DNA from: Escherichia phage phiWec179
Direction: 5' to 3' (one strand)
Length of the DNA stretch: 64,000 nt
Sequence record: LC739533.1
In this document: in pieces, positions 1 to 46,585 of the stretch
Numbering within the stretch: position 1 is the stretch's first letter
Layout of the letters: the number at the start of each line of letters is the position of its first letter
Made by a program: the position numbers and the translations under genes
The notes under the pieces: generated by a model
The model's input: only the letters and a program-made list of their open reading frames with translations
Told to the model about the DNA's origin: nothing
Database searches by the model: none

Positions 1-35
1 GATTTAGCCATGATGTTAATCTCTTTTTCAGTGAG

Positions 36-94
36 GCGGGAACTATTCCCGCGCCCTATGTAATACAGTTTACTCTTTTTATTCGTGCTGTCAA
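36..94 (-). promoter_or_regulatory. Early promoter (TTGACA-N16-TAAACT) with conserved 5' leader hairpin, copy 1
   Basis: Minus strand: -35 TTGACA (89-94), 16-nt spacer, -10 TAAACT (67-72), then GTATTACATAGGGCG and perfect hairpin GCGGGAA/TTCCCGC (36-52). ATG of the next leftward gene is at 9-11; that gene runs off the window. Confidence 0.6.
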
Positions 95-100
95 TGCTTT

Positions 101-454
101 TTATAAATCTTTTTTACGTTTTACATCGCTTGCATGACTGTATACAGCGATCCCATTATCACGACAAAAACGGGTAAGGTATGATCCGCGTGAAAACTCT
201 TTCCCTTCCAGGTCAACAACCTTGCTAAATTCTTCCAGGGCAACGGTATCAAAATGATCACCATAACCATATTGAAACGGCACGTTAACAACTTCAATCA
301 ATTTACCGCCGATCTCAACGTCCACGCTTAAAGAAAAATATGTGTTACCGTAGGACTGTTGAAACCAGCGACGGGCGCTAATGTGAACGGCTTCAATCTC
401 ACCAATTTTAAATTGAGTGTTACCCAGGATCGCAACGTTGATATTTTTAGCCAT
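101..454 (-). CDS. Hypothetical protein (117 aa)
   Basis: Intact ORF in the leftward early cluster; no motif recognised. Confidence 0.6.
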   Translation of the reverse strand: MAKNINVAILGNTQFKIGEIEAVHISARRWFQQSYGNTYFSLSVDVEIGGKLIEVVNVPFQYGYGDHFDTVALEEFSKVVDLEGKEFSRGSYLTRFCRDNGIAVYSHASDVKRKKDL

Positions 455-550
455 GATTTTTTCTCTCTTTTTGGTTAGTGGGAAGTGTTCCCGATAAAAG
501 TTATTATGCTTATACTATCGTTTTTTGTCAATAGTATAAGACTAAAACTT

Positions 551-730
551 TTAACGATAATCATCGTAGGCTTTATTAACCTGGCGAATATAACATTCGA
601 AAGCGAGATCAATAGAATCATATTCCCGCACATAATCCCCGTAAGAAACTACATACACACCTTTTTGATCCTCAAACGTCATGATGATAGAATCCAGGCC
701 GATGATTTCAGTTTTAGCGATGATAGTCAT
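551..730 (-). CDS. Small hypothetical protein (59 aa)
   Basis: ORF MTIIAKTEIIGLD...; just downstream of promoter copy 2; not in the ORF track (<60 aa). Confidence 0.45.
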   Translation of the reverse strand: MTIIAKTEIIGLDSIIMTFEDQKGVYVVSYGDYVREYDSIDLAFECYIRQVNKAYDDYR

Positions 731-751
731 AATAATAACCTTTTTATTGTT

Positions 752-808
752 GGCGGCACCATTGCCGCCCTACGTGATAAACTATACCAGAATTTTAAAC
801 AGTGTCAA
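752..808 (-). promoter_or_regulatory. Early promoter (TTGACA-N16-TATAGT) with conserved 5' leader hairpin, copy 2
   Basis: Minus strand: -35 (803-808), -10 (781-786), then TTATCACGTAGGGCGG and perfect 7-bp hairpin GGCGGCA-AUGG-UGCCGCC (752-769). Confidence 0.6.
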
Positions 809-818
809 ACGTTTTTTC

Positions 819-1064
819 TTAGTTTGCGAAATATGGCGCGGCGGCTGATGCCGTTAATCTCCAAGTGATTTGGCTATCGATCAAGTATTCTTCATTCTTG
901 ATCCGCACGGTATCAATCGAGAAGTTACTGAAAGGCTTGCTCTTGATTTTACGAACAACCGTTACACGACGGTTATTTTTCATCTCTTTTAACTGAATCC
1001 AGGCGTAACCTTTTTCATTGACAAATATTTCATTGTGATTGGTGATAGATGATAAGTGTTTCAT
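819..1064 (-). CDS. Hypothetical protein (81 aa)
   Basis: ORF directly downstream of promoter copy 3. Confidence 0.55.
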   Translation of the reverse strand: MKHLSSITNHNEIFVNEKGYAWIQLKEMKNNRRVTVVRKIKSKPFSNFSIDTVRIKNEEYLIDSQITWRLTASAAAPYFAN

Positions 1065-1087
1065 GATTTTTCTCTCTTCTGTTTTGA

Positions 1088-1147
1088 GCGGTGGACCATT
1101 CCGCCGCCCTATGTGTTACATCTTACTACTTTTTTAAACATTGTCAA
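1088..1147 (-). promoter_or_regulatory. Early promoter (TTGACA-N16-TAAGAT) with conserved 5' leader hairpin, copy 3
   Basis: Minus strand: -35 (1142-1147), -10 (1120-1125), then GTAACACATAGGGCGGCGG and hairpin (1088-1107, one mismatch). Confidence 0.6.
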
Positions 1148-1155
1148 GGATATTT

Positions 1156-1437
1156 TTAACTATATGATCCACATCGTTCGCAGTAGTGATCATCGTCGTC
1201 ATCTGCTACCTGGCTGATAAAATGATCTACCTTTGCTTTCAAATTATTATAATTGCTTTCTACTTCCTGTAGTCGTCGTTGGTAGTATTCCAGGGCTTGC
1301 ACATAGGCCATTTGTTCGGTTTTAGCTTGCATAGCTAAATTCATGCCACGCGTTTCATCGTATAACCAATAACCATCATTACATTCACTAATAGATAGTG
1401 TAGGGCTTAGTTTTTCGTGACGGATAACCTTGCTCAT
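1156..1437 (-). CDS. Hypothetical protein (93 aa)
   Basis: Intact ORF; acidic DDDDD stretch followed by CxxC near the C-terminus. Confidence 0.55.
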   Translation of the reverse strand: MSKVIRHEKLSPTLSISECNDGYWLYDETRGMNLAMQAKTEQMAYVQALEYYQRRLQEVESNYNNLKAKVDHFISQVADDDDDHYCERCGSYS

Positions 1438-1447
1438 AGTGTGCCCC

Positions 1448-1558
1448 TTACTTCAAAATGATTGTTGTGATAACTGCTACGGTGATCCAGAATGGAACAA
1501 CTAAGATAATAGCGTTAATCGTTCCAACTGTCAAACTATTTTCTTTCTTGATCATCAT
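1448..1558 (-). CDS. Putative small hydrophobic peptide (36 aa)
   Basis: MMIKKENSLTVGTINAIILVVPFWITVAVITTIILK; AAGGA RBS. The longer track ORF 1448..1681 would run through the promoter hairpin. Confidence 0.35.
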   Translation of the reverse strand: MMIKKENSLTVGTINAIILVVPFWITVAVITTIILK

Positions 1559-1565
1559 GTTTTCC

Positions 1566-1649
1566 TTACAGTGTCCAAAGAATGATTTCAAGTGCAGCAC
1601 GGAAACCAGGAATAAAATTGATTGCAAAAAACAGGGAAGTAGTAAACAT
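1566..1649 (-). CDS. Putative tiny hydrophobic peptide (27 aa)
   Basis: MFTTSLFFAINFIPGFRAALEIILWTL; ATG about 20 nt downstream of the copy 4 hairpin. Confidence 0.25.
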   Translation of the reverse strand: MFTTSLFFAINFIPGFRAALEIILWTL

Positions 1650-1671
1650 TTTTCTATCCTTTCAGTTGTGA

Positions 1672-1727
1672 GCGGCACCATTGCCGCCTGATGAGTTAAC
1701 TATAAGGGATCACGTTTTACCTGTCAA
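1672..1727 (-). promoter_or_regulatory. Early promoter (TTGACA-N17-TATAGT) with conserved 5' leader hairpin, copy 4
   Basis: Minus strand: -35 (1722-1727), -10 (1699-1704), then TAACTCATCAGGCGG and hairpin GCGGCAAUGGUGCCGC (1672-1687). Confidence 0.55.
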
Positions 1728-2281
1728 CCTAAATCATCAAAATAAAGATAATTTTTTTCGGCTTCTTTCTTCTCTTCCTGTGATGCCTCAAAGACTGGGA
1801 GAAAGTGATCAAAGGCGACGCACTCAACCGCTTGATCGTCTTCCTCTTCCTGGTCTTCCTCCTGGGCTATGGCTGCAATTTTGGCTAATTTCCTTTCAGC
1901 CTGGATCAGCTTACCATCTAAAACGCTTTTAGCGGTGCTGTACGCCGTCCAAGTGATGCGCTTACTTTCCAGCGCGGCATCAAGCGCCGCTATCTTGCTG
2001 GGGTATTCATCCAGGACACGAAAAGCCGGATCTACCTTGTACAGCGGATTATCTTTCGCGCCGTCGCTATCATCTGCGGCGCTTGCAATGTCAGCGTTAC
2101 CATTCGCCAGCCAACCAGGGCGATCGCTGCGTGTTTTGGTATTCCCATGACTACGCGCCGATCTGTTGCCTACTTGCTCGCCACTATAGCCAGGAGCATG
2201 ATCGATCATGTCGTCCGGTATAATGCGCGGATCATTAACGTCATGTTTTACCCAGGACTGGATCACATATTCGCGCCCCAT
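1724..2281 (-). CDS. Hypothetical protein (185 aa)
   Basis: Intact ORF with acidic C-terminal region (EEDQEEEDD); no motif recognised. Confidence 0.6.
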   Translation of the reverse strand: MGREYVIQSWVKHDVNDPRIIPDDMIDHAPGYSGEQVGNRSARSHGNTKTRSDRPGWLANGNADIASAADDSDGAKDNPLYKVDPAFRVLDEYPSKIAALDAALESKRITWTAYSTAKSVLDGKLIQAERKLAKIAAIAQEEDQEEEDDQAVECVAFDHFLPVFEASQEEKKEAEKNYLYFDDLG

Positions 2282-2541
2282 TATACACCCCTTTTAACAA
2301 TCATTTCACACACAAGAAATAAGCTGGCGGAATCACGGCAAGGATAGAAAGATGTACGATAATCTCTCACCCCTGCTTTTATGATCTCCGTGGTTTTACC
2401 TGATAGCACATTGTAAATAGTGTAACTTGTCGGACTGTTTTTATATACCTTGCCAGGGTAGATCATAACATAACGAGCAAGGTTATAAAATTCCTCGTTA
2501 CGAAAGGCTATGATCTTCCCGCATACCTTAAGAAAGTGCAC
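2281..2541 (-). CDS. Hypothetical protein (86 aa), GTG start
   Basis: GTG at 2539-2541 preceded by AAGGGGG RBS; stop overlaps the start of the downstream gene. Confidence 0.45.
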   Translation of the reverse strand: MHFLKVCGKIIAFRNEEFYNLARYVMIYPGKVYKNSPTSYTIYNVLSGKTTEIIKAGVRDYRTSFYPCRDSASLFLVCEMIVKRGV

Positions 2542-2551
2542 GTTAGCCCCC

Positions 2552-2824
2552 TTACAGCAAAAAGTTTACTTGTCTTGCTGTTAATGTAGTATCAACCATT
2601 TTCGGGCTTTTATAATTGACAAAACGCGCGGTTTTTTCAATAGCGAAGCCGAGATAATCTTGTTTGTTGAAATTACATTCTTTCTTAAATGTTTCCCGTG
2701 CAATGGCGATCGCTGCGTCCAGGGATAAACGCCCGTCAATATTGATATTTGCGAAAGATCCGCCACCGCTCATAGGTTTACCAGTGGTGCCCGTTACGAT
2801 CATTGTTGCGCTATATGATGCCAT
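2552..2824 (-). CDS. Hypothetical protein (90 aa)
   Basis: Start taken at the internal Met (MASYSATMIV...) downstream of the copy 5 hairpin; the track start at 2860 lies inside the hairpin. Confidence 0.55.
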   Translation of the reverse strand: MASYSATMIVTGTTGKPMSGGGSFANINIDGRLSLDAAIAIARETFKKECNFNKQDYLGFAIEKTARFVNYKSPKMVDTTLTARQVNFLL

Positions 2825-2846
2825 GATGATAATCTCTCTTAGTTGT

Positions 2847-2908
2847 GAGCGGTGGACCATTCCGCCGCTCTACGTGATACATCTTATCAGGTTGTTGCCT
2901 GTTGTCAA
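2847..2908 (-). promoter_or_regulatory. Early promoter (TTGACA-N16-TAAGAT) with conserved 5' leader hairpin, copy 5
   Basis: Minus strand: -35 (2903-2908), -10 (2881-2886), then GTATCACGTAGAGCGGCGG and hairpin 2847-2870. Confidence 0.6.
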
Positions 2909-2914
2909 TACTTT

Positions 2915-3112
2915 TTATTCAAGCCCTACGATATGTAAGACACGGCGATTAGCAATAGCGTGCTGGTCTTCTGTTATAACGCCCATTTCTACCAGTGAAT
3001 CAAGAAAGGAAAGCACCGTGATATATTCGTCATCGGGTACACTCATTTCATTAGTACCGTTTACCACTACGTTGATTTGTCCTGCTTTCGCTACAATGTG
3101 CAATGTTGCCAT
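2915..3112 (-). CDS. Hypothetical protein (65 aa)
   Basis: Intact ORF with GGAG RBS; first gene of the leftward small-gene cluster. Confidence 0.5.
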   Translation of the reverse strand: MATLHIVAKAGQINVVVNGTNEMSVPDDEYITVLSFLDSLVEMGVITEDQHAIANRRVLHIVGLE

Positions 3113-3309
3113 GATCTTAACTCCAGGTGATGAATGATGTTTTTTGTTGGTTGACGGTGGATTATGGAGATCCTCACCTTTGCCCGTCCTGCATTGCGCC
3201 CTCCTGTTGTTTATTGTCGTTGTGCCTCGCCCCCCTCGACAAGATTAATACTACGCTACCAGGTGCGGAACGTCAACGACTTTTTCAATCTTTTTTATTT
3301 TCTTTTTGC

Positions 3310-27365: not shown

Positions 27366-27716
27366 ATGTCTGTATATTTTGACGATGTTCAGGAATATGT
27401 TTGGTGTCTTTCTGGCACAATCTCGGAAGTAGAAGCTGCGATTCAAGAGGTTTTTCCTTACGCTTATGTAGAAGTTAAACAGGCACCTCCTATGGATCTT
27501 CCCCCTAATGTGGAAGCTTGTTGTGGTTCCGGCGAGGGTACAGTCATCCCAGTTCTGCGTTACGAACTACAAGCAGCAAGTGCAAATGTCGATGATATTA
27601 TTACAGAAATTAAGGCGTATGGTTTCTGGACCTCTCCTTACGCTAAATGGGATAACTCTGACACTTGGGATTTATTCTTCTGGGATAATGAGACAGATGA
27701 CGAGGTATTTCTGTAA
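27366..27716 (+). CDS. Hypothetical acidic protein (116 aa)
   Basis: Intact ORF with AGGAGG RBS. Confidence 0.55.
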   Translation: MSVYFDDVQEYVWCLSGTISEVEAAIQEVFPYAYVEVKQAPPMDLPPNVEACCGSGEGTVIPVLRYELQAASANVDDIITEIKAYGFWTSPYAKWDNSDTWDLFFWDNETDDEVFL

Positions 27717-34880: not shown

Positions 34881-35444
34881 ATGATTTATTATATTACCCC
34901 CTATCTAAGTGGAGATATCGGCAAAGCAATTAACGATGCTATTGCCGTTCTTCACGAAGATAGTTGGGTCTGTTTACGTGATATCGATACCATGTTCTTA
35001 CTGCCAGACCAACCTTCTATGTTGGAAGATTTGGTAGCAACCAATCCACCGTTTGATGTGATCGGTGCGTCTTGTAATCGTTTAGGTAGTGGTTATCAAC
35101 TTCTCGGTGGAAAGATTGATGATGATCCTAACATTCTGAACCATATTTCTCATGCCAAAGTTGCTCGTGATTACTATGGTGATGAAATTGAAGAAGTCCC
35201 ACAAGGCACTCCCTTAGCAGGTTTCTTTCTATTGTTCAGGAAATCATTATGGAAGGAGATCCCTTTTGAAGAACGTACCATCCAGTTCGATATAATCTTC
35301 TCAAACACTTTACATGAACGAGGAAAAAGGTTAGGATTGATGCGTGGGATGTATCTCTTCCATATTTACCGTTTAGGTCAAAAAGATCCTCAACGGGCAA
35401 TATCACACCTTATGCATTGTCATGATCACCGGAAAACTATTTAG
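34881..35444 (+). CDS. Putative glycosyltransferase-like protein
   Basis: DxD-like LRDIDTMF; call rests mainly on position at the head of the glycosyltransferase block. Confidence 0.35.
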   Translation: MIYYITPYLSGDIGKAINDAIAVLHEDSWVCLRDIDTMFLLPDQPSMLEDLVATNPPFDVIGASCNRLGSGYQLLGGKIDDDPNILNHISHAKVARDYYGDEIEEVPQGTPLAGFFLLFRKSLWKEIPFEERTIQFDIIFSNTLHERGKRLGLMRGMYLFHIYRLGQKDPQRAISHLMHCHDHRKTI

Positions 35445-35452
35445 GGGGAAAG

Positions 35453-36136
35453 ATGGAAAATATTAAAATTGGGGTTGGCGTTATCACTGTAGGTGTTCGT
35501 CCACTTAAAGATTACATGGTTGCACCTGGTGTAGACTTCAAAGTGTTTCACGATCCCGATCGTAAAGGTGTAGCTTATGCTCGCAACCAATTAATGAAAC
35601 AGTTCTACGATGAAGGTTTTGACTACTGGTTCATTTTTGACGATGATTGCTATCCGGTTAAACGTGGCTGGGAAGAATACTTCGTTAACCAGGCTGTCGA
35701 GAATGGTTGGGACTTCTTCGGTATGCCAGAATACTTCAAAGATACTGTGATAGGTTGTTCTGGAGAAGTAGTCTTCTGGGAATTGGCTATGTGTCAGTTT
35801 GCAATGTATTCTCGTGCAACTGTTGAGACGATGGGTTATTTCCGTCCTTATACACACGGATATGGTTTCGAAGATGCAGAATGGACTAATCGTCTGAAAG
35901 CTTCAGGTTTGAATAAAGGACTCCAGGGCGTACCTTGTCCGATGCGCATTATGGCGTACATTCACCCCGACGATGTTTTCGGTGATAACCCTTTACCTTT
36001 TGCTAATCTGACAAAAGAAGAGAAAGAATCAGCAATCGGGATCAATTGGGAAGAATACAAACTGTCTTTGGAGGATATTAATAATGGCAAAACACACATC
36101 TCTTTTGAAGAGGCTGAAGGATATGGCGTTAAATAA
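35453..36136 (+). CDS. GT-A fold glycosyltransferase
   Basis: DYWFIFDDDCYP (DxD) and GYGFEDAEW segments typical of GT-A enzymes. Confidence 0.6.
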   Translation: MENIKIGVGVITVGVRPLKDYMVAPGVDFKVFHDPDRKGVAYARNQLMKQFYDEGFDYWFIFDDDCYPVKRGWEEYFVNQAVENGWDFFGMPEYFKDTVIGCSGEVVFWELAMCQFAMYSRATVETMGYFRPYTHGYGFEDAEWTNRLKASGLNKGLQGVPCPMRIMAYIHPDDVFGDNPLPFANLTKEEKESAIGINWEEYKLSLEDINNGKTHISFEEAEGYGVK

Positions 36137-37070
36137 GAAACCAACCCTACTGTGTGACAACAAATTCAACAGTGGTTGTGATTACCATCGCATTGTCATG
36201 CCATTTTCTAACACAGAGATCAAGCCACGTACTGATGTACTGGTCTTTAACCGCATCTTCTCGAAGGGTGCTGATGAAGTAGCCAAACTTAAGCGCCAAG
36301 GTGTTAAGATTGTTGTAGATTTGGATGATTTCTATCAATTGAATCCAGAACACTACCTGGCGCATCTGTACGCGCCAAACACCCGCACAATCGTGGAAAT
36401 GGTTAAAATAGCAGATATTGTCATTGTCACAACCGAATACCTGGCGTACAAAGTTCGTCACTTAAACTCTAACGTTGTTGTGATCCGAAATGCTCTACCG
36501 TTTGATGATGGTCAATTCACTCTCTCGAATGATCGTACTTCGGGTACGCCTATCATTTGGGCTGGAGGTGCGAGTCATGAACCGGATTTACGTTTGCTTT
36601 CAAACACTTTTGATGATAGTTTATTGTCTATCGCAGGGTATGAAGCGAGCAGCACAGTGACAGGGCAAGAGTGGGTTAAGATCCGCCGTAGTTTGCCTAA
36701 TGCGCAGTATAAACCTGCTGTAGATTCTTTGAATCATTATATGTCTGCATACGATGGTCATGCTATGGCTGTAGCTCCGTTAGTAGATAACGACTTCAAC
36801 CATTGCAAGAGCAACCTGAAAGTATTAGAAGCTGGTGCTAAAGGCATTCCAATCGTTTGTTCTAAGGTATTACCTTACTACAACCCGATCGATGCCCGTG
36901 CAGTAACCTTCGCAGATAGCAAAGCAGAGTGGCACTATGAAGTTGTAAAACTACTTCGTAATCCAAACTACCGCGAAGATCGTGGACTGTTCTTGGCTGA
37001 ACATGTTCGTACTCACTACAACTTGAAGGATGCAAACGAATTGCGTCGTCAAGTGATCGAAAGTCTGTAG
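36084..37070 (+). CDS. GT-B fold glycosyltransferase, paralog 1
   Basis: C-terminal KSNLKVLEAGAKGIPIVCS nucleotide-sugar binding motif; paralog of 37071..38021. Start has GGAGGA RBS but overlaps the upstream gene by 53 nt. Confidence 0.6.
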   Translation: MAKHTSLLKRLKDMALNKKPTLLCDNKFNSGCDYHRIVMPFSNTEIKPRTDVLVFNRIFSKGADEVAKLKRQGVKIVVDLDDFYQLNPEHYLAHLYAPNTRTIVEMVKIADIVIVTTEYLAYKVRHLNSNVVVIRNALPFDDGQFTLSNDRTSGTPIIWAGGASHEPDLRLLSNTFDDSLLSIAGYEASSTVTGQEWVKIRRSLPNAQYKPAVDSLNHYMSAYDGHAMAVAPLVDNDFNHCKSNLKVLEAGAKGIPIVCSKVLPYYNPIDARAVTFADSKAEWHYEVVKLLRNPNYREDRGLFLAEHVRTHYNLKDANELRRQVIESL

Positions 37071-38021
37071 GTGTTTATGGGACAAATTATTCTTGACAAT
37101 CGTGGTGGAAAAGAATATAGTGTCTGTGATTATCACCGAGTAATGCTGCCTTACACAAGGCAGTTCTCGGCCCAACCGTCACAGAACGTATATGTCTTTA
37201 ACGGTGTCCCTACGAAAGGGAAACAAGGCTTCATAGCCCTTAAGAGCATGGGCTTTAAGATGGTAATGGATTTGGATGACTCTTTAAACATTCCCCAAGG
37301 CCATATGCTGGAAGACATTTTTGATGCAGGTATTCGAGAAGACTTGCAATGGTTCCTCGAACGCAGTGATCTTGTAACGACAACAACCCCTGCTCTCCAG
37401 GTGGAATTGTCCCAGTACAATCCTAACGTGCATATTATCCCAAATGGTTTACCGTTTGACGAGGATCAGTTTACGTTAACTCGTGATCGCTACTCCAAGT
37501 CCCCTGTAGTTTGGGCTGGAAGTGAAACACACAAGCAAGACCTGGCTCTACTACCGAACTTCGGGAGTGACTTAACGATTTGCGGATTCCGCAGAGATAG
37601 TGAAGTGTTAAGTAGTCAGCAATGGACCGATATACGTGAAAAGGTGGCTCCAAGCTGCAAATATGAGGCTGTTAGACCATATGAGAGCTATATGGAATCT
37701 TACGACGGTCATCAGATAATGCTTGCACCTCTAACAGATAACATGTTTAATAACGCTAAGAGTAACCTGAAGATTCTGGAAGCAGGTGCCAAGGGTTTAC
37801 CTTTAGTGTGTTCTCCCCGTGAAAACTACTTCACCGAAGAGTTTAAAGATTTGTTGTTCTTTGCAGAAACAAAAAGCGAGTGGGAAGATATTGTTAATTA
37901 CCTGATCCAGTGTCCTGATGTGGGTATTGAAAAGGGATTAGCTTTAGCTAAGTATGTTCGTAAGCATTACCATATTGATGTGCTGAATGAACGCCGTAGA
38001 TTATTATTTGAGGAGTTATAA
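37071..38021 (+). CDS. GT-B fold glycosyltransferase, paralog 2
   Basis: KSNLKILEAGAKGLPLVCS; shares CDYHR(I/V)(V/M)(M/L)P and other blocks with the previous gene. Start codon GTG 37071 or ATG 37077. Confidence 0.6.
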   Translation: MFMGQIILDNRGGKEYSVCDYHRVMLPYTRQFSAQPSQNVYVFNGVPTKGKQGFIALKSMGFKMVMDLDDSLNIPQGHMLEDIFDAGIREDLQWFLERSDLVTTTTPALQVELSQYNPNVHIIPNGLPFDEDQFTLTRDRYSKSPVVWAGSETHKQDLALLPNFGSDLTICGFRRDSEVLSSQQWTDIREKVAPSCKYEAVRPYESYMESYDGHQIMLAPLTDNMFNNAKSNLKILEAGAKGLPLVCSPRENYFTEEFKDLLFFAETKSEWEDIVNYLIQCPDVGIEKGLALAKYVRKHYHIDVLNERRRLLFEEL

Positions 38022-38299: not shown

Positions 38300-38314
38300 C
38301 AGGAGAGGATGACC

Positions 38315-38953
38315 ATGAGGTTAGTACAAGGTTGGGGGATTAATGATATAGGTAGTATCCCTAAAACAGGTTTTATCCGAGTAGCTTACAGGTGTTGGTC
38401 AAGAGTTTTAGAAAGATCTCACAGTAAAGCTTGGAAGAATAAGTATCCTACATACAAGGATGTAACATGTTGCGAAGACTGGAAATATTTTTCAGTATTC
38501 ATGGACTGGATGGAGACACAACCTTGGGAAGGAAACGATTTGGATAAGGATTTGTTAGGAGATGGTAGCTTATACTCCCCTCAAACTTGTGTTTTTATAC
38601 CTCCTGAAATAAATAAAGCTTTAGCTGCAAATAAAAAACAAGGAGAATTCTTATCTGGAGTCTGGTTTCAAACAAAGTCTAAAACTATGGTTAATAGTTT
38701 AAAACGTCCTTGGGCTGTTAAAGCCCATAGACAGGGTAGTAAAAAACCTGTATATTTAGGAAACTATTATTCAGAACAAGAAGCCCATAATGTGTGGTTG
38801 ACTACACGCGCAGAGGATATGTTATGGTGGTGCGACCAATGGGAAAACAACGAGAAGTATAATAAATCTTGGAAACCTGTGTTTAAAGAAGCTTTTAATA
38901 AGAAAGCTGAAGCTTATAGAGGGAGGATAAAAAATGTCATACATTGTCACTAA
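38315..38953 (+). CDS. AP2-domain homing-endonuclease-like protein, paralog A
   Basis: N-terminal W..RC...Y..V.C.DW..F..F..W and LDKDLLGDGSLYSPQTC segment; C-terminal AP2-like VYLGNYYSEQEAHNVW. No catalytic His seen in the HNH-like segment. Confidence 0.5.
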   Translation: MRLVQGWGINDIGSIPKTGFIRVAYRCWSRVLERSHSKAWKNKYPTYKDVTCCEDWKYFSVFMDWMETQPWEGNDLDKDLLGDGSLYSPQTCVFIPPEINKALAANKKQGEFLSGVWFQTKSKTMVNSLKRPWAVKAHRQGSKKPVYLGNYYSEQEAHNVWLTTRAEDMLWWCDQWENNEKYNKSWKPVFKEAFNKKAEAYRGRIKNVIHCH

Positions 38954-40715
38954 GTATGGTTTTGATGTAGATTTAAGCAAAGAGGGGCACACAGGGTGTC
39001 CCCGTTGTATGAAGAACGGAAAAGATAGATCGAAGAATAACTTGATGTGTTATGGGTTGGATTCTAACGATGAGCATAAAGGAGCAAAATGCTTCGCGTG
39101 TGAGTACACAATCCCCAGCGTTGAATGGTTACGAGAGAATGGTGAAGTTTTAGAAGAAGAGGAGGATATTGTGGGTTCGGAATTTAATAAAGAGATTCAT
39201 CGTAAGATTGTAGAAGAAACAGGCACTAACCCACGAGGCTACCGTGGGATCAAGGAAGAATATTCTAAATTCTACGGTGTACGTTACCAGTACAAACAAG
39301 AAGAATCTGGTGTTGTTGTGGAACATACTTTGTATCCAACAACTATCGGTAAAGAACTGGTAGGTTTTAAGCGTCGTATCCACCCTAAAGACTTCTCCAA
39401 GCCCATTGGTCAAGTAGGTAAAGATGTAGATTTGTTTGGACAAGTTCGTTTCCTTGAGCGTTCCCACACCGTAATCATTACTGGTGGTGAACATGATGCC
39501 TTGGCAGCATATCAAATGTTGGCAGAAGGTCTTGACAGGAAATATGAATTACCAGCAGTAGTTAGTGGCACAACTGGTGAAACCAGTATGTACAAACAGG
39601 TACAGGCACAGTACCCTTTCTTTGAGAAGTTCAAGAAGATCATCGTCTGCATGGATAATGATAAGGCAGGTAAAGAAGCTTTTGAGAACATTGTGAAGGT
39701 GTTGCCTCGTAATAAAGTTTACCTGATGAAGATGGAACTGAAAGATGCTAATGAATACCTGGTGCAAGATAAAGCAAAAGATTTTGTGAAAGCTTATTGG
39801 GGTGCAAAACTTTATACCCCAGCGGGTGTTTATGCTTCGAACGAACTTTATGAAGCTGCAATGGACTGTCTGGATGCACAAGTGATCACCCTCCCTCCGT
39901 TCATGCGTACTGCTGCGAACATGTTGGGTGGTGGTCTGGTAGAAGAAGAGATCACAGTTATTCTGGCTAAAACGAGTATCGGTAAGACGTTGATGGTCAA
40001 TGAGATCACCAAACACATTATCGTGGCTCATCCAGAACATGTGCTGGGTATTCTGTCTCTGGAGGCAACGTATAAGAAATACTCCCGTAACCTTCTTTCT
40101 TCGTTCCTGCATATTCCTTTGCATCGTAAGACTAAGGAAGAAAAGGCTGCGATCCTGGAAGAGAACAAGGAAGCTATCAATAACTTCTACGTTCGTGAAG
40201 ATGGTTCTCCTCGCTTCTTTGTTTGTGATGATCGTGGTGCAGACATTGATTCAATCAAGGAGAAAGTGCTGGAGATGATCATCTACTTCGGCATTACCAT
40301 CCTGGTAATTGACCCATACTCGGATCTGTTGTCGGGGATGAGTGTTCAGGAACAAGAAGAGTTGGCAACGTGGTTGAAGCGCATCATGAAAGAATACGGC
40401 ATCACGATCATTGTAATCTCGCACGTTAAGAAAGCTGCCAACAATGGTAACGAACACTTAACAGAAGATGATGCAATGGGTAGTAGCTTCTTGGCTAAAG
40501 GCGCAGGTATTACACTGGCACTGGAACGAGATAAGGCTAACGATGACCCCGTACTTAGAAACACAACTTTTTGTTATATTCTCAAAAACCGAGAGTTTTC
40601 AGAAACTGGTCCGGCTGGGGAGTTTTATTACGATATTAAAACTGCCACGCTACACGACAAAGCACAGTATTTTGCTAACCCTGATAATGCAGGTGGTGCA
40701 GAAGGCGCGTATTGA
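38934..40715 (+). CDS. Bifunctional primase-helicase (T7 gp4-like)
   Basis: N-terminal zinc ribbon CPRC...CFAC, TOPRIM-like VIITGGEHDALAAYQ, DnaB-like Walker A ILAKTSIGKT and IIVISHVKK. Confidence 0.8.
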   Translation: MSYIVTKYGFDVDLSKEGHTGCPRCMKNGKDRSKNNLMCYGLDSNDEHKGAKCFACEYTIPSVEWLRENGEVLEEEEDIVGSEFNKEIHRKIVEETGTNPRGYRGIKEEYSKFYGVRYQYKQEESGVVVEHTLYPTTIGKELVGFKRRIHPKDFSKPIGQVGKDVDLFGQVRFLERSHTVIITGGEHDALAAYQMLAEGLDRKYELPAVVSGTTGETSMYKQVQAQYPFFEKFKKIIVCMDNDKAGKEAFENIVKVLPRNKVYLMKMELKDANEYLVQDKAKDFVKAYWGAKLYTPAGVYASNELYEAAMDCLDAQVITLPPFMRTAANMLGGGLVEEEITVILAKTSIGKTLMVNEITKHIIVAHPEHVLGILSLEATYKKYSRNLLSSFLHIPLHRKTKEEKAAILEENKEAINNFYVREDGSPRFFVCDDRGADIDSIKEKVLEMIIYFGITILVIDPYSDLLSGMSVQEQEELATWLKRIMKEYGITIIVISHVKKAANNGNEHLTEDDAMGSSFLAKGAGITLALERDKANDDPVLRNTTFCYILKNREFSETGPAGEFYYDIKTATLHDKAQYFANPDNAGGAEGAY

Positions 40716-40798: not shown

Positions 40799-43396
40799 AT
40801 GAGTAAGTTTACATGGGATATTGAAGCAACCGCATTACTGAACAATGACACAATTGATTACCTGGCAAGCCCTTATCGATTGAAAGACACTTTTGGTATG
40901 CATTGTATTTGTCTGGAAAACCACGAAACAGGAGAGATCATTGCTTTTCACGATGGTCCTAAGTACATTTTCGATGGTCGTCCTTATGAAGAGTCTGACG
41001 GTAAGTACACTTATGTACTGAAGGAGTATGTGGCACAAGAATACACACACTTTCCTCTGTCAGATTTTCCAGATTTTGTCAACCATACAGGCAAGTTCGC
41101 AGATAAGCCTGAATACCTCGTAGAAATGGCTGTAGCCCACAACGGCATCAACTATGACCACTTGGCAGTTAAGCTTTACTACGGGCTGAATTACAGCGTT
41201 AAATACAATACTTGGGGTGATTCGAAAGTTAAGATTATTGATACCCTGATCCTTAGTAAAGTATTGAACCCTGATCGCAAGGTTGATGGTAAACCTGGGC
41301 ACAACTTGAATGCTCTTTCTAAAAAAGCTGGCGGTGATGTTAAGATTGATTTCCGTAAAGAGCTTCCAGAAGGAGAACGATTCAAGACTTTCGCAGCAGA
41401 TATGTTGTACTACTGTATCTACGACAACAAGGCAACTACAGCAGTATATTATTACCTCATGGAAGAATGGGGCGATTATAAGAAGTGGCAAGAGCCGTTC
41501 GACTTGGAGCAACGTATTGCGGATATCATCACCCGTCAAGAACACCGTGGCTTTAAGTTCAACATGCAACAAGCTGAACAGAACCTGGAATTCTTGGACA
41601 AAGAAATGGAACGTCTACGTTTGTTGGTAGAGCCTATTCTTCCACCTAAGCCAGCGACTAAAGGTTATCTGAAAGATTTTATTCCGCCGAAACTTCAAAT
41701 CAAGAAGAACGGTGAGCCAACAAACCATATCATCAGGTTTGCGGAGAAACATGGCGGTAGCCTTGAAGAACGTGAAGGTGATTGGTGGCTGCTTGTTTTA
41801 GATAAAGAGTTTAAGTTACCGATCTCAAGTGAAGAACCTATTTGTGAACCTACCATTCCGTCTACGCTGAATGATACGACACACATTAAAAACTGGCTTG
41901 TAGGTTTAGGTTGGGTTCCGTCTGAATATAAAGACAAGGATTTGACGCTTAAATCTGGTTCGAAGATCAAGAAAGATCCTGACGACTTAGAGAAAGGTAT
42001 TCTGTCTTATGTCAAACAGACCTTGGAAAGCAATTTCTGTAATGACCGTTGCGAACACTTACAAGCCGATGCTGAAACACTGGAGCTTAGAATCCGTGAA
42101 CGTCTGGCTAAAGGGAAAGGTCGTGGTCTTAAAGTGCTGACCAACCCATGCTTCACGAAGGGGCAGGAGAAAGAGATTTGTCCTAATCTTGAAGCACTGG
42201 GCGAGAAGTTCCCGTATGCCACACAGATTGTGCAGTACCTGACGTACAAACATCGTCGAAACTCTATTTTGGGCGGTGGTGCAGATTGGGAAGACGATGA
42301 GGAAGATCAAGAATACGACAAAGGTTTCTTGGCAGCAGTTCGTGCCGATGGTCGTATAGCGACTCCAGCGGCTACATGTGACGCTGCAACATCTCGTATG
42401 AAGCATCGCTCTGTTGCTAACGTTCCTCGCGTTACATCGTTGTTTGGGTACGAAATGCGTAACTTGTTTGGGGTAGAAACACCGCGTTACTTCCAGATCG
42501 GTTATGACTTTGACTCCTTGGAAGCAAAGATTGAGTCGCATTATTGTTGGCGCTACGAACCGGAGCCTCATGAATACTGTAACGCTCTCTTGTTGGAGAA
42601 GCCTAACGATGTTCATACCATGATGGCAAGACGTATCACAGAAACTATTGGACGTAAGTTTGAACGTAGTCCAGCTAAATCTGTTAAATACGGGATTACA
42701 TATGGAGCACAGGCAGACAAAGTTGCTAAGACAATTGGTAGTGATAAGTACACAGGACAACTGGTATTTGATGCGTTCTGGGAAGCAGCTTTCCCGTTAG
42801 CACAACTGAAAGAGAAGTTGAATGCTTTCTGGGTTAACACTGGCAAGCAGTATGTTCTCGGTATTGATGGACGTAAAGTTCCAACACGATCTGCACATGC
42901 AATCTTAAACTCCTTGTTCCAAAGTGGCGGGGTTATCTGTGCCAAGCGTGCAATGGTAATCTATGACGATATGATTGAAGAGGAAGGTTTAGCTGTTGAC
43001 TTCTTCGTAGATGACTGGAAGAATAAAGAGTTCGTTCAGCAAATGATTGCTTACCACGATGAAGCGCAGCTTGAAGTATCTCGTAACTTGGTGGAATTTA
43101 AATGGTTCTCCAAAGAGTCTTTAGGTTGGGTTAAAGTGGATGACGAGAAAGAGCAGAAGAAAATAGATGCGGAATGTCTTGCAAAAGCTAATGAATGGAA
43201 GCATAATAAAGAGAAAGAGACAGGGCAGATTTGGGCTAACGTTCACGAATCACCTAAAGGTGGTTGGTTTACCGCTTATAGTCGTGCCGGAGAACTTGCT
43301 TCTCTTGCTGTTATCAAAGCTGGGGAATATTACAAACTAAACGTTCAGCTTACCGCTGGATACGATGTTGGTAGTTCCTGGGCCAGTTGTCATTGA
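40799..43396 (+). CDS. Family A DNA polymerase with 3'-5' proofreading exonuclease
   Basis: Exo I FTWDIEAT; motif A IGYDFDSLEAK; motif B RSPAKSVKYGITYG; motif C IAYHDEAQ. Confidence 0.85.
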   Translation: MSKFTWDIEATALLNNDTIDYLASPYRLKDTFGMHCICLENHETGEIIAFHDGPKYIFDGRPYEESDGKYTYVLKEYVAQEYTHFPLSDFPDFVNHTGKFADKPEYLVEMAVAHNGINYDHLAVKLYYGLNYSVKYNTWGDSKVKIIDTLILSKVLNPDRKVDGKPGHNLNALSKKAGGDVKIDFRKELPEGERFKTFAADMLYYCIYDNKATTAVYYYLMEEWGDYKKWQEPFDLEQRIADIITRQEHRGFKFNMQQAEQNLEFLDKEMERLRLLVEPILPPKPATKGYLKDFIPPKLQIKKNGEPTNHIIRFAEKHGGSLEEREGDWWLLVLDKEFKLPISSEEPICEPTIPSTLNDTTHIKNWLVGLGWVPSEYKDKDLTLKSGSKIKKDPDDLEKGILSYVKQTLESNFCNDRCEHLQADAETLELRIRERLAKGKGRGLKVLTNPCFTKGQEKEICPNLEALGEKFPYATQIVQYLTYKHRRNSILGGGADWEDDEEDQEYDKGFLAAVRADGRIATPAATCDAATSRMKHRSVANVPRVTSLFGYEMRNLFGVETPRYFQIGYDFDSLEAKIESHYCWRYEPEPHEYCNALLLEKPNDVHTMMARRITETIGRKFERSPAKSVKYGITYGAQADKVAKTIGSDKYTGQLVFDAFWEAAFPLAQLKEKLNAFWVNTGKQYVLGIDGRKVPTRSAHAILNSLFQSGGVICAKRAMVIYDDMIEEEGLAVDFFVDDWKNKEFVQQMIAYHDEAQLEVSRNLVEFKWFSKESLGWVKVDDEKEQKKIDAECLAKANEWKHNKEKETGQIWANVHESPKGGWFTAYSRAGELASLAVIKAGEYYKLNVQLTAGYDVGSSWASCH

Positions 43397-43423: not shown

Positions 43424-44020
43424 ATGCTTACTGTATATGGTGAAGGTATTAATGATCTGGAGGGTGAGAGCACTCTACCTGGTAGTAAGAAACTGACTCC
43501 TCATTATATGAAATGGATGGCTATGTTGGGGAGGTGTTACTCCCCTTGCCAACAAGAACGTGATCCTTGTTATCATGGGGTGCTGGTCTGTGAAGAATGG
43601 AAGCTGTTTTCCAACTTCTATGCTTGGTTAAAAACTTGGGAAGAGTGGGAGAAATTAGAATTAGACAAGGATATTATTGGAGGGGGAGTTTACTCCCCTA
43701 ACACCTGCCTTTTAGTAACAGGAGATCTTAACAAGTTCTTAGCTTATAGAGTGAGTAAAAGATCTCATGGAACTATGGTAGGTTTACATTACGAAAAAGA
43801 TCGTAAGAAGTATAAAGCCAATATTAAAACAGGCTCACGCATGGTAACACTTGGACGTTTTGATACTGAACTTGAGGCGCATCTTTGTTGGTTGAAAGCT
43901 AAAGCAGAACAACTTACAAAGTTTTTTGAAACAGAAGACAAAAGAGTTGTTCCACATCTTAAAGCATTGTATAATGATATGCTTGAACATATTGAACAAC
44001 GTAAGGAGTGGACACGATAG
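43424..44020 (+). CDS. AP2-domain homing-endonuclease-like protein, paralog B
   Basis: W..MLGRC...Y..V.VCEEW..F..F..W, LDKDIIGGGVYSPNTC, AP2-like MVTLGRFDTELEAHLCW; paralog of 38315..38953. Confidence 0.5.
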   Translation: MLTVYGEGINDLEGESTLPGSKKLTPHYMKWMAMLGRCYSPCQQERDPCYHGVLVCEEWKLFSNFYAWLKTWEEWEKLELDKDIIGGGVYSPNTCLLVTGDLNKFLAYRVSKRSHGTMVGLHYEKDRKKYKANIKTGSRMVTLGRFDTELEAHLCWLKAKAEQLTKFFETEDKRVVPHLKALYNDMLEHIEQRKEWTR

Positions 44021-44028
44021 GAGGGTAT

Positions 44029-44223
44029 ATGCGTTACGATTTAGATTACTTTGGTATGCCTTACCTACCCGATGAGTTCGCAGATGAGGCGGAAGATCGT
44101 GAGTGGGATGATGGGGATATCCGTTGTTGGTCTTGTGGTAAAGACATGTCTTACGAACAACACATGCACAACGATGGCTTCTGTCCGCACTGTCAGAATG
44201 AAATAGATTTAGAGGAGGACTAA
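44029..44223 (+). CDS. Small zinc-ribbon protein (64 aa)
   Basis: CWSCGK...CPHCQN; AGGAGG RBS. Confidence 0.5.
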   Translation: MRYDLDYFGMPYLPDEFADEAEDREWDDGDIRCWSCGKDMSYEQHMHNDGFCPHCQNEIDLEED

Positions 44224-44402: not shown

Positions 44403-44621
44403 ATGCGTAAATTAGTGAGTTTTAATGTTTCAATTCTGATTGATGAACAAAATGAAGATGTTATTAAAGGTCTTGCAAATAAGATTGAAGGTGGAATGAC
44501 GGAAGCAGAAGTATGGGAAGAATGTGCTCGACTTTATGAAGCAGGTGTTCTTGAAGTCTTGGAAGATGAGATTAATATGGATGATGTTGTTAAAGTAACT
44601 GTGGAGCGTATCAATGACTAA
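44403..44621 (+). CDS. Hypothetical acidic protein (72 aa)
   Basis: AAGGAG RBS. Confidence 0.5.
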   Translation: MRKLVSFNVSILIDEQNEDVIKGLANKIEGGMTEAEVWEECARLYEAGVLEVLEDEINMDDVVKVTVERIND

Positions 44622-45219
44622 ATCAAGCCAGATTACCCTTGCCCGTGAGATCCTTACTGTTCTTAAGATTGCTGATCCTCGTTCAATCCTGGCAGGTGGC
44701 GCGGTCCGTGATTGGTACATGCTGGACATTGCAGGGCGAGATCTGGACTTCTATACATCATTCCAGCCACACCGAAACATAGATCAGGTGATTACGTTTA
44801 TCAAAGAGAATCTTAAAGGCACCAATGTAACCGTGTTAGGTCAGGAGGAAATGGGTGACAACTATGAGTCTATGATCGGACTGAAACATGTGTTTGAGTT
44901 TATCCGTGATGATCAGGTTTGCAATCTCATGATCATGGAACCATGCTACATGAGCAACATCCTGAAAAACTTTGATCTTTCTGTTTGCAAAGCTTCGTTT
45001 GATGGTGTAGAATATTACTTCGATCCTGACTTCCTGGTAACAGATGCAACAAATATTTGCTTCGTGCATAAGGATGTTAAAGTGGATGCGAAACACGTCC
45101 GTAAGATCGCGGATCGCTTCCCGCACATGCGTTTTGTACGTGACTTGGATGTGCAGCGTCGCACGCAAGATAAGGCTCTACCAAAGTTCGAAGATACTGA
45201 TGAAGATATTCCTTGGTAA
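44614..45219 (+). CDS. Minimal nucleotidyltransferase (CCA-adding/poly(A) polymerase head-domain-like) with SSB-tail-like C-terminus
   Basis: ILAGGAVRDWYMLDIAGRDLDFY resembles the GGxVRD...DxD head-domain motif. Protein ends EDTDEDIPW, resembling the SSB tip DDDIPF. Confidence 0.45.
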   Translation: MTKSSQITLAREILTVLKIADPRSILAGGAVRDWYMLDIAGRDLDFYTSFQPHRNIDQVITFIKENLKGTNVTVLGQEEMGDNYESMIGLKHVFEFIRDDQVCNLMIMEPCYMSNILKNFDLSVCKASFDGVEYYFDPDFLVTDATNICFVHKDVKVDAKHVRKIADRFPHMRFVRDLDVQRRTQDKALPKFEDTDEDIPW

Positions 45220-45263
45220 TAAAGCTTGACTTTCACTAATCTTTTATGATAGGATGACAATCA

Positions 45264-45659
45264 ATGACTGAACGTTCAAAAGTAAGTGTTGAAACTGAAT
45301 ACAGCGAATACCTGAACAGTTTGATACTTGTTGAAAAAGATGTAATAGGTCTGGATAACTCGTTCTTCTTTCAAATCCTGATAGGTAAGGGTGGACACCG
45401 AAAGTTATTCTCTCGCGTGGAAGACTCTGACCTATCCGAAACTGAAATAACGGTTAAAGAACTTATTAGCCTACAGGATAACATCCGAAAAGTTATTGAC
45501 ACAGCCGGGAACGCTGTTACAATAAAACTCGACATGCATTCTGTGCAATTTGTTCATTTTCCGAATGGAGAAATTGGAGTTGGAATAGGTAAAGGTAAGT
45601 ACCTTTTAGAAAAAGAAAACGCAGAGCTTCTTCGTGAGTTCTGTGCAAAAACAATGTGA
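45264..45659 (+). CDS. Hypothetical protein (131 aa)
   Basis: Intact ORF. Confidence 0.55.
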   Translation: MTERSKVSVETEYSEYLNSLILVEKDVIGLDNSFFFQILIGKGGHRKLFSRVEDSDLSETEITVKELISLQDNIRKVIDTAGNAVTIKLDMHSVQFVHFPNGEIGVGIGKGKYLLEKENAELLREFCAKTM

Positions 45660-45676
45660 ATATAGAGGAGATAATA

Positions 45677-46585
45677 ATGTCCGTAATTAATACTGAAACT
45701 GATCGTAAAGGCAAAACTGTAACTTATGCAACTGGTGTTGTAGACTACGTTAAACTGGATAAATTCGCAGAGCCTAAAACCTTCCAATGGGATGGTAAGT
45801 CGATTGTTTCTACTCACCGTGCTTCACTCGTTCTGAAAGAAAAGGGTGCCAAGCAGGATGCAAAAGGGACGTGGATTAGCCTGGGTGATATTGAACTGAA
45901 AGAAGGTTACGAAAATCTTCAGGTTAAAGATGGTGATACTTGGATCACTATCGAAAAAGGTGTTGAAGTTAGTATTGATATCGACAAAGTTGATACCAAA
46001 GGCGACAAAACTTACTACAATACCAAGAAATCTCGTATCACTGTTCTTTCTACTGAAGGTGTTCAGAAGAAAGAAAATAAATCTGGTGGGACTGGCGTTT
46101 CAGGTAATACTGGAAACAAACAATCCTTCAAAAAACGTGATACCGTAGGTCTTGAGACTGGTCATGCAGTTAACGGAGCTTTGGAACTGATTCGTAATGG
46201 TGTGAAAGGTGAAGCGTTTGATATTGCAGGTGTGGTTCAGTCTGCTACTGTGACTCTGAAAGCTGAAGTGGCTAAAGAGCGTGGCGTAGATATCAGTGAT
46301 TATGATCTGGGGGCTTCTGTTGGTCACGCTGTTCTGAATGCCTGTAAAGATCATTCCGGTAAGACTGTTTCGGTAGAAGATTTGATTGAAACTGCTCGTG
46401 AAGTTCTGGCACTTTCTGACAAGGTAGCTAATGCCATTCGTGGCGCAGCAGAACAACCTAAGAAAGAAGAAGCCAAGAAAGAGCCTAAGAAGGAAGAACC
46501 GAAGCAGGAGCCTAAACAAGAACCTGCTCCTCAACAAAATCCAGAAGAACCTCCAATGGACTTCGATGATGATATTCCATTCTGA
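45677..46585 (+). CDS. ssb: Putative single-stranded DNA-binding protein
   Basis: C-terminal acidic tail ends MDFDDDIPF, identical to the E. coli SSB tip as recalled; Lys/Glu/Pro-rich linker precedes it. Start at MSVINTETD after GAGGAG. Confidence 0.55.
   Translation: MSVINTETDRKGKTVTYATGVVDYVKLDKFAEPKTFQWDGKSIVSTHRASLVLKEKGAKQDAKGTWISLGDIELKEGYENLQVKDGDTWITIEKGVEVSIDIDKVDTKGDKTYYNTKKSRITVLSTEGVQKKENKSGGTGVSGNTGNKQSFKKRDTVGLETGHAVNGALELIRNGVKGEAFDIAGVVQSATVTLKAEVAKERGVDISDYDLGASVGHAVLNACKDHSGKTVSVEDLIETAREVLALSDKVANAIRGAAEQPKKEEAKKEPKKEEPKQEPKQEPAPQQNPEEPPMDFDDDIPF

Follow-up and report, generated by a model that had tools for sequence, protein, structure and literature searches.

A minimal nucleotidyltransferase with an SSB-type C-terminal tip in the replication module of Escherichia phage phiWec179, distantly related to the anti-Gabija protein Gad2

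Introduction

Nucleotidyltransferases (NTases) encoded by phages include Gad2, a Gabija anti-defence protein of 400 amino acids (aa) from Bacillus phage SPbetaL7 which is a predicted NTase (bioRxiv 10.1101/2023.05.01.538930), and the MNT-like NTases, which synthesize competitor cyclic dinucleotides (Ho et al., bioRxiv 10.1101/2022.06.09.495361). The mechanism of Gad2 was listed as unknown in a February 2026 review (PMC12904381), and the published table of its homologs includes short forms of 214-228 aa (bioRxiv 10.1101/2023.05.01.538930). The subject of the present analysis is a minimal NTase of Escherichia phage phiWec179, encoded in a stretch of 64,000 nucleotides (nt) of sequence record LC739533.1, hereafter the window, and composed of a catalytic head and an acidic tail that ends in a peptide of the type found at the C-terminus of single-stranded DNA (ssDNA)-binding proteins (SSBs). 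The window DNA is 100% identical to that of Escherichia phage phiWec181 (LC739534), which belongs to the Stephanstirmvirinae and is filed as Phapecoctavirus or under the proposed genus 'Wecvirus'.

Each of the closest described systems shares some features with the window protein and differs in others. Gad2 has a homologous NTase domain, is phage-encoded and, as in the present case, has no established substrate or mechanism; however, the prototype is a 400-aa protein with a C-terminal region of ~250 aa in an anti-Gabija locus, whereas the window protein has 201 aa, a position in the replication module and an SSB-type tip. The MNT-like NTases are likewise small, stand-alone phage enzymes of the Pol-beta fold, theirs being a counter-defence function, but differ in clade and motif and are not reported to carry an SSB-type tail (bioRxiv 10.1101/2022.06.09.495361). 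Class-II CCA-adding enzymes and poly(A) polymerase I (PAP I), both with the PF01743 head, have the same head fold and the same motif A (GGxVRD...DxD), and head-only proteins of ~190 aa exist, as exemplified by PDB 2la3 (NP_344798.1, 'CCA-adding enzyme head domain'). The NTase differs from the CCA/PAP enzymes in being without RRD, EDxxR and the neck, body and tail domains, and in scoring below the Pfam and NCBIfam thresholds.

As for the tail, the C-terminal tip (SSB-Ct, DDDIPF) of E. coli and phage SSBs occupies the same extreme C-terminal place, follows a similar low-confidence acidic linker and consists of the same D-D/E-D-I-P plus an aromatic residue, but the NTase tip is borne by an enzyme and not by an ssDNA-binding domain, ends in W and not in F and is present, as modelled, once per monomer as opposed to four times on the SSB tetramer. 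The helicase-primase gp4 of phage T7 has an acidic tail that ends in Phe, resembles the tail of the SSB gp2.5 and has its binding sites on T7 DNA polymerase in common with it. Gp4 is, like the NTase, a replication enzyme other than an SSB whose tail is acidic-aromatic and SSB-like, and T7, too, has a family-A polymerase and a fused primase-helicase; gp4 belongs, however, to another enzyme class, and the NTase tip is of the bacterial SSB-Ct type (DIP plus aromatic residue) and not of the T7 type.

The nucleotidyltransferase head

The open reading frame (ORF) of the NTase runs from an ATG, preceded ~9 nt upstream by GGAG, to a C-terminus reading ...KFEDTDEDIPW. The match to PHROG 10174 'nucleotidyltransferase' (E 2.7e-45), the 100% identity of the ORF in phages phiWec181 and phiWec186 and its conservation in 192 phage records, as found by tblastn, establish it as a real gene. 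Its start codon overlaps by 8 nt the stop codon of an upstream 72-aa ORF (ATGACTAA), which suggests translational coupling.

In the initial annotation of this DNA, a minimal NTase of 201 aa had been proposed at this position, with an N-terminal GGAVRD...DLD motif like that in the head domain of CCA-adding enzymes and poly(A) polymerases. The protein and its motif were confirmed, and the interpretation given there was supported in part. The motif is found, as GG..RD...DxD, at residues 26-47 (LAGGAVRDWYMLDIAGRDLDFY). An AlphaFold model built on an alignment of 118 family members is confident (predicted local distance difference test, pLDDT, 87.4; predicted template modelling score, pTM, 0.81) and ordered over residues 1-176, and a Foldseek comparison with the PDB ranks class-II CCA/A-adding enzymes first (3wfs, E 5e-5; 1miv; 3h3a), so that model and matches together support the NTase fold; the nearest solved folds are those of CCA-adding enzymes and of E. 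coli PAP I. G28, G29, W34, D43, D45 and Y47 are invariant across the 118 members, and the broader pattern of invariant or near-invariant residues (A27, G28, G29, R32, W34, D43, D45, Y47, E95 and K164) argues for an active enzyme.

Besides motif A, which is present together with the Pol-beta head fold, the distinguishing features of CCA-adding enzymes are missing. The PolyA_pol head profile of Pfam (PF01743) gives a sub-threshold score of 15 bits against a cut-off of 23 (E 0.032), and the NCBIfam CCA equivalog TIGR02692 gives 13.3 bits against a cut-off of 438.8. Motif B (RRD) occurs in none of the 118 family members; motif D (E[DE]xxR) occurs in 14 of them, outside the conserved columns, and the window protein lacks it. 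The model has no neck, body or tail domain, its core comprising only residues 1-176 (CCA/PAP enzymes total 350-450 aa), and a PDB sequence search with the NTase gave no match. A link with tRNA was considered and rejected: there are no tRNA genes in the window, and the 10 tRNA genes of the phage lie ~38 kb away, with CCA encoded in nine of the 10. With the CCA hallmarks missing and the tRNA genes distant and provided with encoded CCA, the GenBank label 'tRNA nucleotidyl transferase / poly(A) polymerase' is a fold-level guess, and the repair or tailing of tRNA 3′ ends, which had been put forward in the initial annotation, is disfavoured. Assignment to the cyclic dinucleotide-making NTases of Ho et al. 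was rejected as well, because the signatures GS-x-AY[GAN]T-x4-SDxD and NP-x-h2[DE] are not found and AGGA[VP]RDW...DLDFY stands in their place. No ssDNA-binding domain of the OB, gp32 or gp2.5 type was found in the NTase, the body of which is the NTase fold.

The SSB-type tip

Residues 177-201, which follow the ordered core, are net acidic and have a pLDDT of 53-59; this low confidence in the last 25 residues is taken as disorder. In eleven homologs (56-98% identity), (D/E)DDIPW is kept behind a linker that contains insertions and deletions, P200 and W201 being invariant. Furthermore, the tip recurs in the NTase of phage Tr1 (34% identity, ending KPKDIPW), in that designated P0040 (33% identity, FPDDIPW) and in a distant member of 305 aa (P0189, SSNDIPW), and other clades of the family end in tips of the IPF type (VEVVEIPF, EKPIPF and NNIPF). 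When six-frame ORFs of at least 40 aa were scanned across the whole phage genome (427 + 369 + 279), a C-terminal [DE][IL]P[FWY] was found solely in the NTase and in an SSB-like gene downstream of it. Since only these two ORFs of the genome carry the tip, and since it is kept down to 33-34% identity while the linker changes, its presence on the NTase is more than chance. A comparison with the SSB-Ct pattern (an acidic run plus [IL]PF) finds D-E-D-I-P present and W, not F, as the last residue. The SSB-like tail that had been read from the sequence holds up, with the tip at the extreme C-terminus behind a low-confidence acidic linker and with W as its last residue.

How this W is to be seen emerges from a collection of viral contigs, which was scanned for the exact tip DNA GANGATATTCCTTGGTAA; as the codons were fixed in the scan, all the counts are lower bounds. 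About 44 of the 47 matches close, in frame, an ORF of at least 55 aa and its low-complexity acidic linker, and only two belong to NTases. Among the carriers of DDIPW are canonical OB-fold SSBs (Pfam PF00436, E 1e-23 to 1e-37, e.g. ...NNGGGFGDMDDDIPW), an SSB of the gp32 type (PF08804, E 8e-31, ...SGFEDDDIPW) and members of three PHROG 'single strand DNA binding protein' families, as well as some proteins that are gp2.5- or DUF669-like by eye, without a family match. The F-ended version of the pattern yields at least 120 matches in viral contigs as against 47 for W, which identifies W as a minority but real variant. On sequence grounds, DDIPW is one of the natural forms that the SSB C-terminal tip takes, and the NTase tail is of the SSB type.

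Other carriers of DDIPW match no SSB family, namely a Pam3-gp34-like protein, a dNMP kinase (phrog_139; L122) and an AAA+ ATPase of the CbbQ/MoxR type (L103, L109). In several loci, a W-tipped protein is accompanied, often in the adjacent position, by an F-tipped enzyme that is not an SSB (L098 2502-4941, L101 626-2720, L092, L112, L116, L134): e.g. the Pam3-gp34-like protein, with GDDIPW as its end, adjoins an AEP primase with EEEIPF, and one locus contains both a canonical SSB with DDDIPW and a PolB-type 3′-5′ exonuclease with LDEIPF. To judge from such C-termini, placing SSB-type tips on DNA-metabolism enzymes other than SSBs is a recurrent phage practice. Full-text literature searching found neither W-ended tips nor SSB-tail mimics on non-SSB phage proteins; the W-ended SSB-type tip is apparently new to description, and the NTase family that carries it is known and annotated.

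At the DNA level, four NTase lineages with 33-62% protein identity (window 45205-45219; L005, L002, L008) use exactly the same tip codons, GAT ATT CCT TGG, with p ~0.004 as calculated from local codon usage, and the flanking DNA 5′ of the tip codons shows no conservation. Codon bias, recent exchange of the tip or a recombining cassette, and a constraint at the DNA level are the possibilities; the same codons in the 47 unrelated tips, by contrast, arise solely because the scan required them.

Some further C-termini deserve mention in their own right. One NTase clade (P0051 from L051, P0093, P0097, P0113, P0116, P0117, P0120 and P0122) ends in ...VSLPFWFGG[YD] or SPYFLGW. These ends presumably recall the clamp-binding C-termini of T4 polymerase, gp33 and gp55, in which case the motif would be a second way of tethering the NTase to the replisome. 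In the window, the sole other ORF with an acidic tail and a hydrophobic end encodes a 116-aa protein (phrog_27498, 27366-27716, + strand) ending ...WDNETDDEVFL.

A distant branch of the Gad2 superfamily

A profile search of 1.84 billion representative proteins retrieved an NTase family of 2,732 clusters at E<=1e-3, 982 of them at E<=1e-10, with lengths of nearly always 175-230 aa and a mostly viral origin in the contexts sampled. Precomputed Pfam matches on family members are to PF26128 'Gad2', being 'faint' or 'weak' where graded and ungraded in the other cases. With the Gad2 homolog sequences of Supplementary Table 10 (bioRxiv 10.1101/2023.05.01.538930), hhalign of the family gave 93.2% (E 2.9e-7) against the experimentally verified Gad2 homolog of a Brevibacillus prophage and 97.7% (E 2.5e-12, 126 columns) against nine published homologs, in an alignment that spans the whole catalytic core (helix 1, the AGG turn and the DxD, FD-[ST]-[VI]-C and DFL motifs). 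These profile matches place the NTase family as a distant branch of the Gad2 NTase superfamily. An identity of only ~25%, the absence of the C-terminal ~250 aa and the other genomic context indicate, at the same time, that the NTase is not a Gad2 ortholog.

Two candidates for a closer connection were rejected. P0166, a 400-aa protein with the NTase domain at its C-terminus, has no Bacillus-phage match and is, therefore, a different fusion rather than a Gad2; and the Gad2-like genes of phages 4MG and KpS8 are not positional orthologs, as they are located elsewhere in those genomes. In K45PH128C2, one of the listed relatives, such a gene lies near rIIA/rIIB. Pfam searches of the N-terminal extensions found in longer family members returned nothing informative, and PADLOC returned no matches for the NTase, the 131-aa protein encoded downstream of it or the SSB-like protein.

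Genomic context

The features of the locus are collected in table 1. The order primase/helicase, family-A polymerase, small ORFs (with or without HNH homing endonucleases), NTase, 131-aa gene and SSB-like gene is constant in phiWec181, phAPEC8, phi92, Citrobacter phage Tr1, Klebsiella phage KP13-26 and metagenomic relatives. Over the family at large, 50 of 77 viral loci (65%) have a polymerase-A and/or primase-helicase homolog no further than 6 kb from the NTase family gene, and nearly always in the same orientation, to be compared with a rough estimate of ~20% for a gene placed at random in a genome of 45-150 kb. The NTase family is tied to replication in many more phages than the Stephanstirmvirinae alone. 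The TTGAC and TGnTAnnAT (extended -10) elements of the promoter that follows the NTase are invariant in eight diverged lineages and, with such a promoter-like element directly after its stop codon, the NTase appears as the last gene of the polymerase unit.

Table 1. Features of the NTase locus in window coordinates.
Feature	Coordinates	Strand	Remarks
DNA primase/helicase, phrog_239	38934..40715	+	
Family-A (T7-like) DNA polymerase	40799..43396	+	candidate reader of acidic-aromatic tails
Upstream 72-aa ORF, phrog_25475, function unassigned	44403..44621	+	stop overlaps NTase start
Minimal NTase, coding sequence including stop codon	44614..45219	+	201 aa
Folded catalytic core, residues 1-176	44614..45141	+	Pol-beta superfamily, class-II CCA/PAP head-like
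Active-site motif LAGGAVRDW...DLDFY, residues 26-47 (LAGGAVRDWYMLDIAGRDLDFY)	44689..44754	+	G28, G29, W34, D43, D45 and Y47 invariant in 118 family members
E95	44896..44898	+	94% conserved in the family; putative third catalytic carboxylate
Low-confidence net-acidic linker, residues 177-195	45142..45198	+	pLDDT 53-59; sequence and length vary among homologs
Tip DEDIPW, residues 196-201	45199..45216	+	SSB-type docking peptide (putative) ending in W
Sigma-70-like promoter, TTGACT-18-TAGGAT with TG	45226..45255	+	directly after NTase stop
131-aa protein, phrog_16560, function unassigned	45264..45659	+	always between NTase and SSB-like gene
SSB-like protein	45656..46585	+	ORF start GTG 45656; homologs start MSVINTE
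Tip DDDIPF of SSB-like protein	46565..46582	+	

Several other observations concern the surroundings of the NTase. In several of the eight lineages, the -35 element is enclosed by a GGGG-TTGACA-AACCCC palindrome (window 45220-45263). An acidic protein of 71 aa (window 44008-44223, + strand; phrog_25582) with two CxxC pairs and zinc-ribbon matches is kept 5′ of the NTase in relatives (e.g. L008 5810-6004). Two paralogous HNH endonuclease genes (phrog_953; 43424-44020 and 38309-38953) flank the primase-helicase and the polymerase; the former is missing from genomes of the phAPEC8 type, the alignments of which begin at window position ~44017, and such presence or absence is typical of mobile homing endonucleases. 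Four glycosyltransferase-like genes lie immediately 5′ of the primase/helicase (window 34881-38021), one of which weakly matches the PHROG of T4-type HMC glucosyltransferases, and dTDP-rhamnose biosynthesis genes are found at the start of record LC739534 (positions 1-3127); candidate targets for glycosylation are DNA, virion proteins and glycans of the host.

The SSB-like neighbour

The true start of the SSB-like protein is probably the ATG at 45677, which gives a product of 302 aa. Its last 12 residues, EPPMDFDDDIPF, are identical to those of E. coli SSB, and its AlphaFold model consists of a beta-rich N-terminal domain, a helical domain and a disordered tail. The protein has no Pfam SSB/OB match, and a fold search with the model returned weak OB-fold matches only (E > 0.02). 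Because of this weakness, its SSB nature is argued from the tail, from PHROG and depositor labels and from a preprint on a likely relative, the BASEL phage protein Bas52_0087, which is reported to trigger the DRT10 defence and for which interplay with ExoI is proposed (bioRxiv 10.64898/2026.04.29.721553). Since the SSB-like family of the window reaches rV5-like phages, Bas52_0087 is probably related to it, in which case the SSB tips of these phages would already have been linked to cross-talk with host defence.

All 85 SSB-like homologs keep ...[IVL]PF, 72 as the last residues and 13 with an extension of 14-17 aa after it, and nine of the tails, when compared as DNA, show synonymous codon variation; conservation of [IVL]PF despite such variation is indicative of selection on the tip at the protein level. 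The extension past DDDIPF has a conserved [AS]P[ILV]GL[QP]Y... sequence (e.g. APIGLQYGRNFLHCF) and is found in the proteins of L001 (5053-6000, phi92 gp156) and L002 (5073-6044, Tr1), and, furthermore, in P0262, P0268, P0287, P0299, P0300, P0306, P0309, P0310 and P0319. As it makes DDDIPF internal, recognition of a free carboxylate should be abolished in these proteins, and the extension could be a second docking motif or a means of masking the tip.

Proposed mechanism and alternative explanations

The reading preferred here, which is tentative and held with a little less than even confidence, is that of a competent NTase head, docked through its tail at replication forks or ssDNA, that adds nucleotides to the 3′-OH of nucleic acids. 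The enzyme is a stand-alone head of the Pol-beta superfamily, with an intact catalytic motif and without substrate-holding domains of its own, and its gene closes the polymerase transcription unit within the replication module. A flexible acidic linker of ~20 residues bears the DDIPW tip, which would dock in the SSB-tail pockets of the usual tail readers, possibly the phage replisome (family-A polymerase, primase-helicase) and/or SSB partners of the host, e.g. ExoI, RecQ, RecJ and PriA. Docking would enrich the catalytic head near SSB-coated ssDNA and near the 3′ ends of replicating phage DNA, where it would most likely transfer nucleotides, without a template, onto a nucleic-acid 3′-OH. Within this scheme, steering of the NTase to replication or repair proteins by its tail is probable, the reader of the tail could be host SSB-interacting proteins or, equally, the phage's own replisome, and the benefit would consist in end protection or counter-defence or, alternatively, in an accessory role in replication.

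A number of points weigh against this scheme. The 3′-OH substrate is deduced only from the nearest solved folds; the core, with its pI of 5.7, is slightly acidic and gives no hint of strong binding to nucleic acids by itself; and an SSB-type tip would lead the enzyme to tail-reading proteins, not directly to ssDNA. Most of the wider NTase family is without an SSB-type tail, which makes the tail an add-on outside the chemistry. Within the clade, the end is always W and never F, though E. coli SSB and the SSB-like protein of the phage use F and all 85 SSB-like neighbours keep [IVL]PF, so that W and F tips are perhaps not interchangeable. Sister NTases with the same synteny have other tails (LDDAWDDDNF, LDEAWDNDNF, KPWEDL, APWEDEDI, PDFLDEI and ...EPDVSFD...KKKTLDDAWDDDNF), and that of phi92 ends NNEEFKI. 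Co-variation of the NTase tail with the SSB tip was considered and rejected, as loci in which the NTase ends LDEAWDNDNF or PDFLDEI keep DFDDDIPF on the SSB-like protein. Indeed, the W of the NTase may descend from an ancestral internal [AP]W motif; in the MAFFT alignment, GAT AAT GCT TGG GAT (DNAWD) is aligned to GAT ATT CCT TGG TAA (DIPW-stop).

Some of these points are taken up by an explanation in which the tail is not an SSB mimic, but a lineage-specific acidic W motif for a co-evolving phage partner, such as the family-A polymerase or the 131-aa neighbour, or an autoinhibitory pseudo-substrate, its likeness to DDDIPF being partly coincidental. Besides the invariant W and the [AP]W followed by acidic residues in sister clades (DAWDDDNF, PWEDL, PWEDEDI), the variation of the tails by lineage, while the SSB-like tip is constant, and the precedent of the T7 gp4 tail on the gp2.5 sites of the polymerase speak for it; however, DDIPW is found verbatim on canonical SSBs, on a gp32-type SSB and on PHROG-labelled SSBs, DIPW reappears in far-diverged NTases, other clades of the family have IPF tips, and the model (pLDDT 53-59 for the tail) has no confident docking of the tail on the core. 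This explanation is considered unlikely. The same degree of doubt applies to Gad2-type counter-defence as the primary role, which overlaps with the mechanism proposed above and in which the NTase would neutralize a DNA-end-sensing or nuclease-helicase defence, e.g. Gabija, with the tail aiming it. The profile homology to Gad2 homologs, one of them experimentally verified, the Pfam 'Gad2' matches, the short forms in the published homolog list, the status of Gad2 itself as a predicted NTase of unexplained mechanism (bioRxiv 10.1101/2023.05.01.538930; PMC12904381) and the DRT10-triggering likely relative of the SSB-like neighbour, with its proposed ExoI link (bioRxiv 10.64898/2026.04.29.721553), are in keeping with such a role, but the identity to Gad2 of just ~25%, the absence of the ~250-aa C-terminal part of the prototype, the lack of PADLOC matches and a fixed syntenic place in the replication module (65% of viral loci near polymerase or helicase), unlike a variable anti-defence locus, are not.

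An activity on proteins or small molecules, i.e. AMPylation or UMPylation of a host SSB-interacting protein guided by the tip as bait, or synthesis of a decoy nucleotide as by the MNT-like phage NTases, would suit an acidic core without a nucleic-acid-binding domain, and small phage NTases that make competitor cyclic dinucleotides do exist (bioRxiv 10.1101/2022.06.09.495361); AGGxxRDW...DLDFY in place of the GS...SDxD of the MNT-like family speaks against the proposal, which is regarded as very unlikely. A broader and quite unlikely conjecture is that SSB-type tips (DDIPF/DDIPW) are a portable address label, worn by phage NTase, AEP primase, 3′-5′ exonuclease, dNMP kinase and AAA+ ATPase, which on the NTase would bait the SSB-tail pocket of genome-maintenance or defence proteins of the host, e.g. 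ExoI, RecQ or RecJ, so that the head would nucleotidylate the protein, or the DNA 3′ end next in line for processing by that protein, and disarm end-sensing or nuclease defences. Finally, the annotation found in phAPEC8 and further GenBank records, by which the protein would add or repair the CCA end of tRNA or act as a poly(A) polymerase, is highly improbable: the nearest solved folds, the weak PolyA_pol head match, the annotations themselves and the presence of 10 tRNA genes in the phage are offset by the scores far below the CCA equivalog cut-off (13 bits vs 439) and short of that for PolyA_pol, by the absence of RRD (0/118), of a conserved EDxxR and of neck, body and tail domains, by the encoded CCA of nine distant tRNA genes and by the association of the gene with replication genes.

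Concluding remarks

These results do not support the label 'tRNA nucleotidyltransferase / poly(A) polymerase' that the gene commonly bears in genomes of the Stephanstirmvirinae. The presence of SSB-type tips on phage SSBs of unrelated folds and on enzymes of replication and nucleotide metabolism suggests a shared docking code by which the ssDNA machinery would be assembled or hijacked. A minimal relative of Gad2 with a recognizable docking peptide provides a direct experimental route into Gad2-type action, and the bait conjecture, if true, would supply the missing mechanism for the Gad2 superfamily.

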